Assembly (NCBI GenBank): GCA_965206765.1
Contig: OZ242222.1
Location: 1,191,165-1,255,164 of the forward strand
Direction of reading: 5' to 3'
Source of the DNA: Candidatus Multivorans sp.
Lineage (GTDB): Bacteria; Acidobacteriota; Thermoanaerobaculia; Multivoradales; Multivoraceae
Length of the DNA stretch: 64,000 bases
Under the pieces are notes generated by a model. That model was not told the origin of the DNA. It saw nothing but the letters and a program-made list of their open reading frames with translations, and searched no databases. Shown here piece after piece: positions 38,982 through 46,892 of this stretch. Within the stretch, counting starts at the first letter, position 1, and each line of letters begins with the position of its first letter. A program made the position numbers and the translations under genes.

Positions 38982-40469
<1,488 letters not shown>

Positions 40470-40596
40470 CGTTGGCGCAGGGACATGCGCCTTCTGGCAC
40501 CGAACAGCGCAGAGTCGCCTACCGATCCCTCCGTGAGGCTGCGTCATTCGGTGATTGGCCCAGTTCGCGCCCTCGCACGGCGCTCCTGAAGCGATG

Positions 40597-41439
40597 TTAT
40601 CGCCCGGGCCCGACCCTCATGTCATCAACCCGAGCCACGGGCACAATCTCCACACCGCGCCCCTTGCTATAGAGGAACAGGTACCGCGAGTTACCGCCGA
40701 TAATGCTCCAAGAGTGGTGCGTGTAGGTACGCTCCGCCGTGTGTACCACAAAGGCGCTCCCGGGATTGTCCTTCACCTCGGCAATCCGAAGGTGGGCGCC
40801 ACCAAGGAGGCTTGAGGTAAACCCTATCGTGAACACCGCCAGGAAGATCATCACTCCCGTGCCGTGGAATCGCCTACTCAGGAGTACGACCGGAACATAG
40901 GCGATGCTGATCGCAATCAGGGGCATCCACCTGAGCAGCTGAAAACCTTCGTCACCCGGGGCATAGGAGAGAGCTACAAGCGCAACGAACGCCACTATGG
41001 TCAGCCAAGAGGTGATGGACCCCTGCCAAAAGCGCTCGTGCCGGTACACCGAAACTGCTGGCGAGGCAGTCTGCCATGGCTGCGCACCAAGAAGCCACCC
41101 GAGCATGCCGACGGCGGCATGCCGGAGTTGGTCGATGCTACTCGAGACGTAGTCAGTCACGTGGAAGAAGTCACCCACGTCCACGCCGAAATGTCCATAC
41201 AGGACGTGTACATGTAGGTATCCCGACACCAAGAAGGTCGCTGATAGCCACCAACCCAACAACGACAACTCCTTGGCCGGAAAGAGAGTCCTTCCTGACG
41301 ACGAAGAGGCTAGGGCACTACGCTGTCTCCGGAACTCCTTGACCGCAAGCCTGTAGACTTGCGCCACCCACTCCTCTACTTGGAACCGCGGAGGAATCAG
41401 TGGGCGCGTCTCCGTCTTCGCCCGCGGGACCCTCGTCAC
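40597..41439 (-). CDS. Hypothetical polytopic membrane protein (5 predicted TM helices plus a C-terminal soluble domain of about 60 aa)
   Basis: 280-aa ORF in the low-GC island with no recognisable motifs. Its start may be downstream of 41439, given the overlap with the upstream ORF. Confidence 0.5.
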   Translation of the reverse strand: MTRVPRAKTETRPLIPPRFQVEEWVAQVYRLAVKEFRRQRSALASSSSGRTLFPAKELSLLGWWLSATFLVSGYLHVHVLYGHFGVDVGDFFHVTDYVSSSIDQLRHAAVGMLGWLLGAQPWQTASPAVSVYRHERFWQGSITSWLTIVAFVALVALSYAPGDEGFQLLRWMPLIAISIAYVPVVLLSRRFHGTGVMIFLAVFTIGFTSSLLGGAHLRIAEVKDNPGSAFVVHTAERTYTHHSWSIIGGNSRYLFLYSKGRGVEIVPVARVDDMRVGPGR

Positions 41440-41821
41440 TCCCGACGCGCGACGACACGAAACTTGCCATCAGGAGGTACCAGCGCCGATACCGTCCACA
41501 CTGGTCGTTCGACCGAAGCCACTCCGCCCACTCCGTCTGCCGCGCCCGCCGGGTCAGGCGAGACTCCGTCACCAAGCGACTATCGAAGAGGTCACCTATT
41601 TCCTCACGGATTTCACGATCGAGAACGTCGTCTCTTCTTTCAACACCGAGACCGAAGTGCAATCGCAGTCTCAGAGCCGCCGCGTGCTGCAGCAGTCCGC
41701 GCGCTTGGCGCGCGCGGTCCACCAGCATTCTAGTCCGGAGAGGGTCGAGCCAACGTCGCAGTAGAGCAACCGCCGAAAGTGCGTAGACCAACCTAAGCAT
41801 AGAGTCCTTCCGTAGTGTCAC
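41318..41821 (-). CDS. Hypothetical protein (167 aa), island-encoded
   Basis: ORF with atypical codon usage. It has a hydrophobic N-terminus and a charged helical middle. It overlaps the downstream gene by about 120 nt, so the boundaries are uncertain. Confidence 0.35.
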   Translation of the reverse strand: MTLRKDSMLRLVYALSAVALLRRWLDPLRTRMLVDRARQARGLLQHAAALRLRLHFGLGVERRDDVLDREIREEIGDLFDSRLVTESRLTRRARQTEWAEWLRSNDQCGRYRRWYLLMASFVSSRVGSDEGPAGEDGDAPTDSSAVPSRGVGGASLQACGQGVPETA

Positions 41822-42192
41822 CGTGGGGCATACCTCGCTTCTAGCGGGTTGCCTGCGGCATCTTAGCCGGGCTTGATCGGGACGAGCCCCACCCCGCGGC
41901 TTGCTGGTCCCGGCAAGCAGGGCGCGCGACCGGCCGACTTACAAGCCGTACCTCCCGCGGACCGAAACGGGCGGCGGCTTGGCCTACGCGACGCTCCAGC
42001 GGATCCGCCTCAACGGTAGGGGGCACGACCAGGACAACTGGCGGGGAGCCTGGGGAACTCCGCCAACCTCAGGCAGAGGTCCCTCAGTCGCCGCCGAGTG
42101 TATGCTCGGCCACGGCCCCCGCCTGAGGGAGTCCGCTAAGAGCAACCCACCTTGACCCGGCGTAACAGCGCCAACGACGACCGCGCACCGCC

Positions 42193-43257
42193 ATGATCGC
42201 ATCGGCATCCGCCGCAGAACAACAGCTTCGCCGCTACTTGGCGGCGCCCCGGTACTCACCTCTCTATGTCGCAGGGGACGCCGTAGGTGTCTTGCCCTGC
42301 TTTCCTGCTTCGTCCTTCGACTGCTGCATGACCAGCCCCCCCTATTGGCGGAAGCGGCAGTACTCGGGCGGCGGTATCGGAATGGAGAGCACCTACGAAG
42401 ACTATGTCGACAAACTTCTCGCGGTGTTGGGAGAGGTCCGTCGCGTCCTTAAGCCCACGGGCTCGCTCTGGCTTAACCTGGGAGACTCCTACAAGAACAA
42501 GGGGCTGGCCGGCATTCCATGGCGAGTGGCATTGCGGCTCACGGACGAGCAGAACTGGATCCTCCGCAACAGTGTGGTGTGGAACAAGATCAAGGGCGGG
42601 CCAGACAACACCCGCGACCGTCTCCGAAACGTCCATGAAAACGTGTTTCACTTCGTCAAGGAACCGCGCGGGTACTACTACGACGTCGACTCGATTCGCA
42701 GCACACCGAAGACGACAAAGGTCGTCAATGGCTCCGTAGTCACGGCGACCGGCGTTCGCGGCGTGCGATATCGGAGGCAGATCGAACTCTCCACCGAACT
42801 CAGTGCGTCTGAGAGAAAGTCCGCCTCTCGGGCTCTCGCGGACATGCTCAACGCCGTGCGAGGTGGCACCGTGGCCGACTTCCGCATGATTATTCGTGGC
42901 AACCAGAGGACCACCCACTCGGACTCCGCAAGCGTCTCGGGTCGCGCCAAGGAGCTTCGCGATAAGGGCTTCTACTTCCTGAAGTACCACCCGAACGGCA
43001 GCAAGCCTGCGGACGTCTGGGACATCCTTCCTGAAGACACCCAGAAACGGCGAGCACATTTCGCACCTTACCCAGAGGATCTCTGCAAACTACCGATCCT
43101 CGCGACTTCGCCACCAGACGGCACGGTCCTTGACCCGTTCTGCGGCACAGGAACGACGATGCTAGTCGCACAGCGTCTAGGGAGAAAGTCGGTCGGCATC
43201 GATCTATCGGCCGAGTATCTGGAAATGGCCGAGATGCGAACGGGCTCATTGTTGTGA
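42193..43257 (+). CDS. Site-specific DNA methyltransferase (N4-cytosine/N6-adenine, beta class, PF01555-like)
   Basis: Motif IV TSPPYW precedes motif I DPFCGTGTT. That order is characteristic of beta-class amino-MTases, and an S-P-P-Y tetrapeptide favours N4-cytosine specificity. Confidence 0.85.
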   Translation: MIASASAAEQQLRRYLAAPRYSPLYVAGDAVGVLPCFPASSFDCCMTSPPYWRKRQYSGGGIGMESTYEDYVDKLLAVLGEVRRVLKPTGSLWLNLGDSYKNKGLAGIPWRVALRLTDEQNWILRNSVVWNKIKGGPDNTRDRLRNVHENVFHFVKEPRGYYYDVDSIRSTPKTTKVVNGSVVTATGVRGVRYRRQIELSTELSASERKSASRALADMLNAVRGGTVADFRMIIRGNQRTTHSDSASVSGRAKELRDKGFYFLKYHPNGSKPADVWDILPEDTQKRRAHFAPYPEDLCKLPILATSPPDGTVLDPFCGTGTTMLVAQRLGRKSVGIDLSAEYLEMAEMRTGSLL

Positions 43258-44102
43258 GCCAGGTACTCGAGCTCTTCGGGCACGGTGCGGACGAGGCAAC
43301 CGATTGGTCTCGGGTGGTTGGGGAGCAGCTCTGCCCCTACCTAGGCTCGGCATGCATCAAGACCCGGAAGAGTCAACCCGAAGTGGCCATTGGAACCTGT
43401 TGCGTCAGCTACGGCCGCGAGGAGCGGACTCCGGTGATCTGTCCGAACCGGCTCCTGAGAGGCGGAAAGGTAATCATCGACTGCATGCGCTACTTGCGGT
43501 CCTACGGACCGGGGGACGACCTGCACGTCGTTCCAGAAGTCGGAGTGCCGGGCGGAAGTGCCGACTACTTCTTGGTGTCTGTGAGCGGGGGCTCAGTCGG
43601 GGACTTTGTCGGGATCGAGTTGCAAGCACTTGACACGACGGGAACGGTCTGGCCGGCTCGTCAGCGGTTCCTAGGGCGAGTCGGACTACGCCAACGCGCC
43701 GAAGCAGAAGCAAGCAGTCGCAGATACGGCATGAACTGGAAGATGACCGCGAAGACGACTCTTGTTCAGCTACACCACAAGGTCCGAACTTTCGAGGCCC
43801 TGGGCCGGCAACTCGTACTTGTCTTGCAGGACGAGCTTCTTGGCTACTTGCAGAGGGAGTTCACCTTCGGGCACGTAGGCCATGCTTCCGACAACGACCC
43901 GATGCAGTTCCACGCCTACAACGTGCAACGGGGCCAAGCAGGCAGCGGGTTACATCTCGCAGAACGGCTGAGCACCGACACCAAGGGAGTCCGCCGCTGC
44001 TTGGATCTTCAGACTGAGGCGCGAGTTGACACCGACCATCTGGTCGCGCAGCTGCGCAGAAAGCTAGGTCCCAGCACCCTCTTCCGCCCAAGAGGAACGT
44101 AG
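43254..44102 (+). CDS. Candidate cognate type II restriction endonuclease (Cys-rich N-terminal metal-binding region)
   Basis: GTG start at 43254 overlaps the MTase TGA, forming a GTGA that implies translational coupling. It has 5 Cys in the first 65 aa (CPYL...C...CC...C) and a possible D...E-x-Q/K catalytic core (DFVGIELQ). Confidence 0.5.
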   Translation: MSQVLELFGHGADEATDWSRVVGEQLCPYLGSACIKTRKSQPEVAIGTCCVSYGREERTPVICPNRLLRGGKVIIDCMRYLRSYGPGDDLHVVPEVGVPGGSADYFLVSVSGGSVGDFVGIELQALDTTGTVWPARQRFLGRVGLRQRAEAEASSRRYGMNWKMTAKTTLVQLHHKVRTFEALGRQLVLVLQDELLGYLQREFTFGHVGHASDNDPMQFHAYNVQRGQAGSGLHLAERLSTDTKGVRRCLDLQTEARVDTDHLVAQLRRKLGPSTLFRPRGT

Positions 44103-44109
44103 GCACGCC

Positions 44110-44290
44110 TCCAGCTTTGCCCTAACAGGTTCCTTTAGCCAAGACAGGACGCCGAGGTTGCCCTCGCGAGCCGCGGCGTGTCGCCTCCACCGCAGTTAGG
44201 AAAGCGAACGGCGCGGTAGTACGCGGGAACGTCGGAGCCGGCGGCGTCGATTCGAGCGACTTCCCAGGCCCCCTAGCCCCCCATAGCGGA
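44110..44290 (-). pseudogene. Decayed duplicate of the 3' end (last ~55 codons) of the hypothetical gene at 44962..45969
   Basis: About 75% nucleotide identity to 44975..45140. The translation retains ...YYRA.RF......REGNLGVL.WL.EP... in the same order as the intact C-terminus. Confidence 0.7.
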
Positions 44291-44961: not shown

Positions 44962-45969
44962 CTAGCTTCCACGGTTCGTAGCCAGCCACTCCTCCAGGGC
45001 CACTCTGGCCGGTTCCTCCAGCCAGGGCAGGACGCCCAGGTTGCCCTCGCGGGCGGCGGCGTCTATGTCGACTTCGTTGCGGTCGAGAAAGCGGGCGGCG
45101 CGGTAGTACAGGGGGCCCTCGGAGTCGGCGGCGTCGCCGAGTTCGATCAGGTGGCCGGCGAGTTCGCGGGTGCGGCGGAGCCTGGGCGGCAGCGGTGGCG
45201 CGGGCAGGGGTCTGGGCAGGCGAGGCTGGAGACCCGCGGCTTCGGCTGCGCATTGGAACGCCGCGGCGTCGGGCGGCGACTCGCCGCCGTGAAACAGGGC
45301 GTCGAAGGCCTCGGGCCAGGTGGATTGCAGGCGTTCGGCGAGCAGGCGCCGCTCGCGGGCGCCGAGCTGCATCGCGCGCGGTACGACGAGACGGGCGCCG
45401 GCGGCGGCGAGTCGCGCCATCGCCGGCGCCAGGAGGCCCGGCTGGTCGGTCCAGTCGGCAACGAGCGGCCAGACGACGGTCGCGCCGGCCAGCGGACGCG
45501 GTTCGAACGGGAGGCCAGGCTGCCGACGCTCCCTGAACTGGCTTCGCAGCGCGGCAGCGTGGCGGACCAGGGCGTCGAGGAGGTCGACTGCGACGACGGC
45601 GTTGGGGGGCAGGTCGGCAAGTCTTGGCGCGGCCACCTCGCCAAGGCTCGACCCGCCGACCGGGATGTTCGCTACCACTTGAATCAGGAGCGGCACTCCG
45701 GCACCGGCCGCGGCCTCGACGATGCGGGTACGGAGGGGCTCGTGATCCGCCGGTAGCGGGGGAACGTAGACGACATCGGTCACCGAGTGCACCCCTTCGG
45801 CGGCCTCGGCGCCGGCCGGCAAGGGTCCGGCCGTCGACGGCGGCAGGCCGCCGGTGGCGAGATCGCACCAGAGGTCGTCGCTGCCGGCCGCGGGCCAACG
45901 GGGAAAGCTGTGACGGATCCAGAGGTTCGCCGGTTCGGCGACGTGTTCGCGGAGGTTGAGAGCGCTCAC
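44962..45969 (-). CDS. Hypothetical protein (335 aa) with no recognised family
   Basis: Clean high-GC3 ORF, Pro/Ala/Leu-rich, with no catalytic signature that I can assign. Its 3' end is the source of the duplication at 44110..44290. Confidence 0.55.
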   Translation of the reverse strand: MSALNLREHVAEPANLWIRHSFPRWPAAGSDDLWCDLATGGLPPSTAGPLPAGAEAAEGVHSVTDVVYVPPLPADHEPLRTRIVEAAAGAGVPLLIQVVANIPVGGSSLGEVAAPRLADLPPNAVVAVDLLDALVRHAAALRSQFRERRQPGLPFEPRPLAGATVVWPLVADWTDQPGLLAPAMARLAAAGARLVVPRAMQLGARERRLLAERLQSTWPEAFDALFHGGESPPDAAAFQCAAEAAGLQPRLPRPLPAPPLPPRLRRTRELAGHLIELGDAADSEGPLYYRAARFLDRNEVDIDAAAREGNLGVLPWLEEPARVALEEWLATNRGS

Positions 45970-45974
45970 GCCCT

Positions 45975-46150
45975 GACGCTCCCGAACCAGATGCGGGCGG
46001 GACGCCCGCGTTCCCAGGGCAGAGAGGTCATGGGGCGACGTTCCCGAACCAGATGCGGGCGAGACGCCCGCGTTCCCAGGGCAGAGAGGTCACGGGGCGA
46101 CGTTCCCGACGCGGATGCGGGCAAGATGCCCGCGTTCCCAGGACGGACGG
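45975..46150. repeat. Tandem array of about three 62-bp units, each carrying a GC-rich hairpin (GCGGGC[G/A]-NGA-[C/T]GCCCGC) plus the conserved flank GTTCCCAGG
   Basis: The period is 62 bp (CGAACCAGATGCGGGC at 45983 and again at 46045). The third unit has diverged and abuts the ribE stop. Confidence 0.85.
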
Positions 46151-46151
46151 C

Positions 46152-46892
46152 TCAACGCCGGGCCGACTCGAGGGCGGCTGCGACGGCCGCCTCGACGGAC
46201 TTCTGCACGTACCGGGCGAGAACGTCGCCCTCGACGTTGACCCGGTCTCCAGGCTTCAGGTCCGAGAGGGTCGTGACCTCGAGCGTGTGCGGAATCAGGG
46301 CGACGTCGAAGGTCTCTTCGTCGAGCGCCGCGATCGTCAGGCTGACGCCGTCGATGGTCACGCTGCCCTTGAGAACGAGGCTGTTCTCGAGCTCGGCGGG
46401 GACTTCGAACGTGATGACCCGGTTGTCTCCGAGTTCCTCGACTTTCGCCACCCGGGTCGTCGTGTCGACGTGTCCCTGGACCCAGTGGCCGCCAAGCGGA
46501 TCGCCGGCCGAGAGCGGCGGCTCCAGGTTCACCTCATCGCCGTCCTGAAGCGTGCCCAGCGTCGTTCGGCTGAGGGTTTCAGGAGACAGATCGAAGGCGG
46601 ACCACGCCGGGATGGCGTCTTCCGCGCCTTTGCCCGCAACTCCGTTCGCGCCGCCCTGCTCCACCACGGTAAGGCAAACGCCGGAGACCGAGAGGCTGGC
46701 GCCCAAATCCAGCCGCGACGCAAGCCTCTCGGAGTGCCCGATCACCACGCGGGAACCCGTGGGGCGCGTCCTCGCGCCACACGCGACCCAGTCCGAGCGC
46801 CCGTCTTCGGGCGGTCGGATGGCACCGTGGCGCCCCAGGGCCTTTGGGGCCTCGACTACCCGGCCAAACTCCGTGACAATTCCGGTAAACAT
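46152..46892 (-). CDS. ribE: Riboflavin synthase alpha subunit
   Basis: MFTGIV start and a duplicated lumazine-binding barrel. Confidence 0.8.
   Translation of the reverse strand: MFTGIVTEFGRVVEAPKALGRHGAIRPPEDGRSDWVACGARTRPTGSRVVIGHSERLASRLDLGASLSVSGVCLTVVEQGGANGVAGKGAEDAIPAWSAFDLSPETLSRTTLGTLQDGDEVNLEPPLSAGDPLGGHWVQGHVDTTTRVAKVEELGDNRVITFEVPAELENSLVLKGSVTIDGVSLTIAALDEETFDVALIPHTLEVTTLSDLKPGDRVNVEGDVLARYVQKSVEAAVAAALESARR

Follow-up and report, generated by a model that had tools for sequence, protein, structure and literature searches.

Two co-oriented open reading frames (ORFs) overlap on the minus strand beside a restriction-modification (R-M) system in the genome of a Candidatus Multivorans sp. 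(assembly GCA_965206765.1, contig OZ242222.1), and the question they raise is whether they are two genes acting together or one gene that has been broken. The window analysed is the stretch of 64,000 nucleotides at positions 1,191,165 to 1,255,164 of this contig, and coordinates are numbered from its first letter. The ORF listing places an ORF of 280 amino acids (aa) at 40597-41439 (frame B) and one of 167 aa at 41318-41821 (frame A), which share the 122 nt at 41318-41439. An earlier note on this DNA had described the two ORFs and an overlap of about 120 nt, which was confirmed, and had read them as separate genes for a membrane effector and a small partner, possibly with a role in defence or abortive infection. 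Here we argue, at a probability of roughly 0.85 to 0.9, that the two ORFs are the halves of one gene, encoding an inner-membrane protein of about 400 aa and interrupted by a one-base (+1-type) frameshift.

One gene in two reading frames

An exhaustive HMMER search of 1.84 billion representatives, using the 280-aa ORF as query, returned 235 relatives at E<=1e-3. Most of these proteins are 380-440 aa long and the match is confined to their C-terminal ~240 aa, leaving an extra N-terminal region of about 150 aa. A family profile of 396 positions was built from 59 full-length relatives and searched against the three minus-strand frames. Frame A matched profile positions 15-115 (39 bits, approximately 41737-41432) and frame B matched positions 140-391 (209 bits, 41364-40612), in an order identical to that of the intact proteins. 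The 24 profile positions unmatched between the frames correspond to 67 nt, that is, 22 codons and one base, and any single-base deletion within approximately 41365-41440 gives a stop-free ORF of 400 aa from the ATG at 41800. The restored ORF scored 258-259 bits (E ~6e-79), compared with 39 and 209 bits for the halves apart, and its product aligns end to end with 40 homologs. The window gene is therefore not one uninterrupted ORF; its halves lie in different frames that a 1-nt deletion rejoins, which marks it as a disrupted member of the family.

The 5' half of the gene, recognised by profile and motif alignment in frame A (41432..41800, minus strand), encodes a predicted cytoplasmic, all-helical N-terminal domain (N-domain), where RLRLHF..D..LD and W.EWL..D line up with the consensus motifs of the family. 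The gene likely starts at ATG 41800, behind the Shine-Dalgarno sequence GGAAGGA (41811-41805). The 3' half, in frame B (40597..41364, minus strand), was delimited from the profile, the AlphaFold2 (AF2) model, the GC content at third codon positions (GC3) and conserved columns, and encodes a predicted juxtamembrane helix, five transmembrane (TM) helices and a C-terminal beta-barrel. The frameshift interval (41365..41440, minus strand) falls in the variable linker between the N-domain and the first TM helix, and holds one extra base or an equivalent indel. Frame A continues past this point as an out-of-frame tail of about 38 codons (41318..41431, minus strand) that ends at the stop at 41320-41318 and has no homology to anything. 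Out-of-frame read-through accounts for roughly the final 40 codons of the 167-aa ORF and for about 20-25 codons at the beginning of the 280-aa ORF and, because the family profile runs from frame A into frame B, the 122-nt overlap is best taken as the footprint of the frameshift. The frameshift would leave two overlapping pieces, an N-terminal fragment from frame A and a membrane and C-terminal fragment from frame B.

Base composition was compared by codon position (GC1/2/3). The values for the 280-aa ORF, 0.61/0.47/0.72, match those of the adjacent methyltransferase and restriction endonuclease genes and are a genuine coding signature, and those for the 167-aa ORF, 0.71/0.52/0.63, form a mixed signature. 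In a word-indexed search of a set of 5.8 billion proteins, the 167-aa ORF had no match, itself included, and since even a self match is lacking this ORF is evidently not annotated in the source genome. The same search with the 280-aa ORF returned only its own public annotation, P0001, of 221 aa. The annotation should mark the locus as a frameshifted pseudogene and not as a 221-aa protein.

To follow the two parts in other genomes, a degenerate DNA motif of about 44 bits was derived from the most conserved columns and used to retrieve loci. It returned 93 loci, 33 in GTDB species genomes and 60 in metagenomes, and by profile search all 93 were true members. The profile is spanned from about position 5 to 393 in a single ORF at ~55 of the 93 loci. 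About 20 others encode a natural short form of ~250 aa that covers profile positions ~165-392 only and has no N-domain ORF nearby, and 8 are split, at various positions. The N-domain is thus either fused or absent, and in none of the 93 other loci does it form a separate conserved gene. The 96 loci fall into 78 clusters at 85% identity.

These counts bear directly on the reading of the earlier note, a membrane effector and a small soluble partner forming a two-component defence or abortive-infection system. Locally, two overlapping, co-oriented ORFs beside an R-M system do have that look, and this look is all that favours it. The supposed partner shows homology to the N-terminal part of the full-length homologs and is therefore the N-terminal domain of one and the same protein; it has no independent homologs of its own and its 3' end is out-of-frame read-through. 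No locus among the 93 holds both parts as separate conserved genes, so the pair proposed in the earlier note is not conserved outside this genome, and ~55 of these loci have a single ORF with no conserved partner. We consider two distinct genes very improbable. The likeness to Kiwa KwaAB, to Zorya ZorAB-type systems and to the TM effectors of CBASS, Pycsar and retrons likewise extends only to a local TM ORF with a small upstream ORF; the upstream ORF in the window belongs to the same gene, a conserved partner is lacking, and no hidden Markov model (HMM) of a component of these systems was matched. If the two ORFs are one broken gene, a false lead is removed, in that the window holds no two-component system and only the broken copy of one gene.

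Architecture and state of the window copy

The AF2 model of the restored protein (predicted local distance difference test score, pLDDT, 83.6; predicted template modelling score, pTM, 0.71; linker low, pLDDT 58-64) has the same architecture as that of the intact homolog P0046 (pLDDT 90.5, pTM 0.79). Six or seven cytoplasmic helices (~170 aa) precede five TM helices, and a beta domain of six strands forms the C-terminus. This last domain, of about 50 aa with pLDDT above 90 in the restored-protein model, resembles an Sm/SH3-like barrel. The earlier note had predicted five TM helices and a soluble C-terminal domain for the 280-aa protein and a hydrophobic N-terminus with a helical body for the 167-aa ORF; the model bears out the first, and the second holds with an N-terminus that is mildly hydrophobic. 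By the positive-inside rule, the K/R-rich N-domain would be cytoplasmic, and the barrel and the best-conserved loop, FG.D..FF..DY..S between the first two TM helices (TM1 and TM2), would be periplasmic. No match was found in BFVD and the predicted fold had no solved relative. A TM helix that runs into an Sm-like beta domain is also seen in MscS-type channels; membership of that group was rejected, as neither a PF00924 match nor a structural match to its pore helix and beta domain was obtained.

Conserved motifs are found on both sides of the frameshift. The core membrane motif of the family, G-[YF]-x-[YH]-x7-F-x-[IVL]-x4-[FY]-F-x3-D-Y-[LIV]-x2-S (TM1-loop-TM2), is fitted by the window sequence SGYLHVHVLYGHFGVDVGDFFHVTDYVSSS, so that frame B carries the GY..(Y/H)..FG.D..FF..DY..S pattern, and the window sequence IIGGNSRYLFLYSKGRGVEIVP aligns to the barrel consensus (F/I)-G-x-N-S-x-Y-x-F-L ... 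E-I-(I/V)-P. The N-domain motifs R-x-R-x2-F-x-LP-x2-G-x-D-x3-D and W-L-x2-D are present in frame A with two conserved residues substituted (P of 'LP' to G, and G of 'G.D' to R). Against a profile of the N-domain only, frame A scored 45.7 bits, within the range of intact members. Over its full length the window copy aligns at 20-33% identity with the unnamed ~400-aa family (e.g. P0002-P0150), shares its N-domain, membrane and barrel motifs, and differs from it by the frameshift, the two N-domain substitutions and a smaller GC deficit.

Several points weigh against the reading of a broken gene as set out here. The frameshift was read from the assembled sequence alone, and the position of the indel is bracketed only to approximately 41365-41440 because the linker is poorly conserved. 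An indel introduced by sequencing or assembly, in which case the organism would carry an intact and functional gene for the 400-aa protein, is unlikely, though it deserves more weight than the remaining alternatives. It would account for a gene that is otherwise without decay, both halves of which score like intact members; the junction contains GGG, CCC and GGG runs, and the contig names of the related genomes suggest long-read metagenome assemblies, which can carry indels. However, there is no homopolymer of four or more bases in the junction. Across 10.5 kb of flanking genes, comparison with a relative of 97.6% identity gave a single in-frame 9-nt gap and no frame-breaking coding indel, so the assembly does not appear indel-prone, and about 8 of the 93 other family loci are split as well, which makes real disruption common in the family. 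The ratio of N-terminal to C-terminal domain scores in the window copy, 0.23, lies inside the range of intact members, and since both halves still score like these, the frameshift, if real, should be recent. On balance a genuine, recent inactivating mutation is probable.

The other point of this kind concerns the 3' half. The public annotation of P0001 starts at an internal TTG at 41262, with AAGGAG at 41274-41269 (feature 41262..41274, minus strand), 6 nt upstream. This TTG corresponds to profile position ~174, almost exactly where the natural short forms begin, and with its strong Shine-Dalgarno sequence it might allow the 3' fragment to be expressed and active. The 221-aa membrane and barrel product would then function with or without a separate N-terminal fragment, in the manner of the ~20 loci that naturally encode profile positions ~167-392 alone with no N-domain ORF nearby; because such short forms exist, the membrane-plus-barrel module appears to be the core of the family and able to stand alone. 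Yet the short forms are a distinct, lower-scoring subgroup, the nearest relatives of the window copy are all full length, and a separate N-terminal fragment would end in about 38 nonsense residues. Expression from TTG 41262 is, moreover, a prediction from sequence alone. A functional split of this type is thus unlikely, and the window copy, taken as a frameshifted gene, is probably non-functional, giving at most a short-form product of 221 aa from this TTG.

Programmed +1 ribosomal frameshifting or phase variation, by which the output of full-length protein would be controlled, was also considered. The shift needed is of the +1 type, several family loci are split, and two of them contain T7 or A7 tracts where the ORFs overlap. 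The homologs are nevertheless plain single ORFs, and breakpoints vary by locus (profile ~115-140 in the window, 237 or others elsewhere). The junction in the window has neither a slippery or homopolymeric tract nor an in-frame stop. With unsplit homologs and no such tract, this mechanism was rejected as the least probable of all.

Split or truncated copies make up about 9% of the other family loci (L012, L026, L069, L071/L084, L086, L087 and L091). L071 and L084, the same sequence in two metagenomes, and the unrelated L091 are all broken at profile position 237, and the T7 or A7 tracts are those in the overlaps of L091 and L086. Recurrent inactivation may mean that the gene is costly.

The variable locus downstream of lysS

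The gene lies next to lysS, whose stop is at 40469 and whose product clusters at >90% identity with proteins from related genomes of 4.4-5.4 Mb. In three of these relatives, L037, L039 and L040, homology to the window breaks off precisely at the stop codon of lysS; it restarts at 44984 in L039 and at 44345 in L037. The mean GC of the window is about 68%, falling to 0.61-0.64 at 40.5-45 kb. The segment 40470..44100, which comprises the membrane-gene pseudogene and the R-M system and is absent from the three relatives, has a GC of 0.60-0.64, compared with ~0.68-0.72 in the flanks. The segment of foreign composition described in the earlier note is thus borne out both by its lower GC and by its absence from three related genomes.

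Other cargo occupies the same position in each relative. After lysS, L037 has an 862-aa protein that lacks a Pfam match and lies between two insertion sequence (IS) copies, L039 has a HigB toxin and an HTH/HEPN_Swt1 protein, and L040 has a HATPase_c-DUF4325 protein, DUF222 and IS21/DDE transposases. Because the relatives hold different cargo there, 40470-44100 can be regarded as the strain-specific cargo of a recombination hotspot in which genes for defence, toxin-antitoxin systems and mobility tend to be found. The unannotated cargo genes of L037, L039 and L040 could be better defence candidates than the gene flagged in the earlier note.

The remaining genes of the cargo lie on the plus strand. 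A Type II DNA methyltransferase (MTase; N6_N4_Mtase) at 42193-43257 was identified by Pfam PF01555 (1.8e-48) and PADLOC MTase_II (1.3e-66), and is divergent from the membrane-protein gene with 371 nt between them. It is followed at 43254-44102 by its candidate cognate restriction endonuclease (REase; PADLOC REase_II, 1.7e-8, and a weak NotI-like Pfam match, 1.4e-3), the start of which overlaps the MTase stop by 4 nt. The divergent intergenic region (41822-42192, 371 nt) has a GC of about 0.68-0.69, above that of the genes on either side. Within it lies an 84-aa plus-strand ORF (41901-42155, GC3 0.80) with no Pfam match, and the small ORFs at 41841-42259 likewise matched no Pfam family. Neither a regulator resembling a controller (C) protein nor a promoter consensus was found between the MTase and the membrane-protein gene, and scanning the region with Rfam and for promoters and terminators yielded no useful result.

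Two sets of repeats occur at the far side of the cargo. A direct repeat of ~150 nt, with 75-77% identity between its copies, is found at 44101-44249 and 44984-45136. The left copy, which sits directly behind the REase stop and overlaps the end of a HAD-hydrolase ORF, duplicates in decayed form the 3' end of a 335-aa gene (44962-45969, minus strand); L039, which has no HAD gene, matches both copies. The arrangement suggests that an insertion or replacement introduced the HAD gene and gave the 335-aa gene a new 3' end, leaving the repeat as its scar. At 45959-46154, in the interval that separates the 335-aa gene from ribE, a 62-nt unit is present in three tandem copies; identity to the first copy is 75-88%, and every copy has a GC-rich hairpin (GCGGGCGGGACGCCCGC). 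The L039 alignment is rich in gaps over these positions, so that copy number or sequence varies by strain, and the unit may be a repeat of the repetitive extragenic palindromic (REP)-like or terminator type.

Spread, neighbours and possible role of the family

Neither ORF, nor the restored protein, nor any of eight homologs matched a model in Pfam, NCBIfam, PADLOC or PHROGs, in agreement with the earlier note, which had called the proteins uncharacterised, and a literature keyword search returned nothing specific to the family. The earlier note had also held that placement of the membrane protein in a housekeeping family would speak against a defence role; the searches placed it in no curated family. 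The family delineated here, without a description in any curated database, comprises at least 235 clusters at 50% identity and extends over many bacterial phyla. Its hosts include Thermodesulfobacteriota, Nitrospirota, Latescibacterota, Acidobacteriota, Alpha-, Gamma- and Zetaproteobacteria, and further Chlorobium, Bacteroidota and Campylobacterota.

The GC of the family gene is below that of its flanks in 33/33 genome loci, by 13 points on average and by up to 37. Since the gene is AT-rich relative to its flanks in every one of these loci, horizontal transfer is indicated; the window copy has a deficit of 8 points relative to its host. Several loci (e.g. L004, L008, L022 and L033) show a sharply bounded, single-gene AT-rich patch of ~1.5 kb with no integrase or transposase visible. 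The core DNA motif had 0 matches in 2.9 million viral contigs. The intact family appears to consist of stand-alone accessory membrane proteins spread by horizontal transfer.

Gene neighbourhoods were annotated gene by gene at ~35 loci, five of which (the window, L001/L002, L008, L023 and L030) have an R-M gene immediately next to the family gene. R-M genes account for well under 1% of genes, so that five adjacencies are far above the ~0.3 expected, a comparison made without a matched control set. In L001/L002 an Mrr_cat nuclease and an N6_N4 MTase lie directly upstream and co-oriented, within a conjugative element with a type IV secretion system (T4SS) and ArdC; in L008 the stop of an MmeI-type IIG enzyme lies within a few bases of the family gene start; L023 has an MmeI MTase and target recognition domain (MTase-TRD) downstream and a Zeta toxin upstream; and L030 adjoins a 1666-aa Eco57I-like enzyme. 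Among the metagenome neighbours were DpnII/MboI (2), MvaI/BcnI, a Type I MTase, QatC (2), PDC-S60 (2), PIN (2) and STAND NTPases (2), some of which counts may duplicate one lineage. In L008 the GC of the R-M gene is host-like and that of the family gene is not, for which reason insertion into the same variable spots is favoured over a functional unit.

Besides the homolog P0151, the conjugative element of L001 (1-9867) and L002 carries a BglII-type R-M system, two Mrr_cat nucleases, IS elements, ArdC and the T4SS, and is a dense region of defence and anti-defence cargo.

No recurrent partner family was found among the 120 genome and 115 metagenome neighbour ORFs, the maxima being Response_reg (6/120) and HATPase_c (4/115). 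A conserved response-regulator partner was considered and rejected. A response regulator, of the sigma-54 type or another, occurs no more than three genes from the family gene in only five loci (L007, L012, L014, L015 and L017), which are mostly short-form or partial copies from delta-proteobacterial and Nitrospirota metagenome-assembled genomes, L015 being a full-length Gallionella copy. This proximity may reflect lineage-specific synteny.

What this implies for the defence role proposed in the earlier note is mixed. The gene is indeed part of a foreign cargo beside an R-M system, and a co-occurrence of homologues with R-M or defence genes, also raised in that note, was found to the extent of the five adjacent loci, and the association of the family with such genes appears real but modest. 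The pair is absent, however, and the window copy is broken. Further points count against a defence function: most neighbours are unrelated or housekeeping genes (metH, relA/spoT, thiamine pyrophosphate (TPP) enzymes, PhoD), neither ORF matched a known defence HMM (PADLOC-DB v2.0.0, E<=0.1), and the proposed function draws entirely on context, mobility and predicted topology. As the family sits beside R-M genes only sometimes, it is a weak defence candidate.

Single-gene exclusion or abortive-infection proteins of mobile elements, such as T4 Imm, P22 SieA and RexB-like proteins, offer a comparison, by analogy only, in that they too are stand-alone polytopic inner-membrane proteins of patchy distribution, found in variable or mobile DNA by defence genes. 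The family resembles none of them in sequence or structure, matches no PADLOC or PHROG model and is absent from viral contigs. Membership among phage superinfection-exclusion proteins was accordingly rejected (no PHROG, 0 viral-contig matches, no BFVD match).

The most likely role of the intact family, though less likely than not, is envelope-level protection against invading DNA or phage, by exclusion or abortive infection. More tentatively still, the intact family might be an unrecognised single-gene inner-membrane determinant of defence or exclusion, carried on an AT-rich cassette that crosses phyla and often lands beside R-M systems. Intact members are sensible and inexpensive candidates to screen by phage or plasmid challenge, for example the gene at 6230-7564 of L027 in the cultured Mariprofundus ferrooxydans PV-1 (NZ_DS022294.1).

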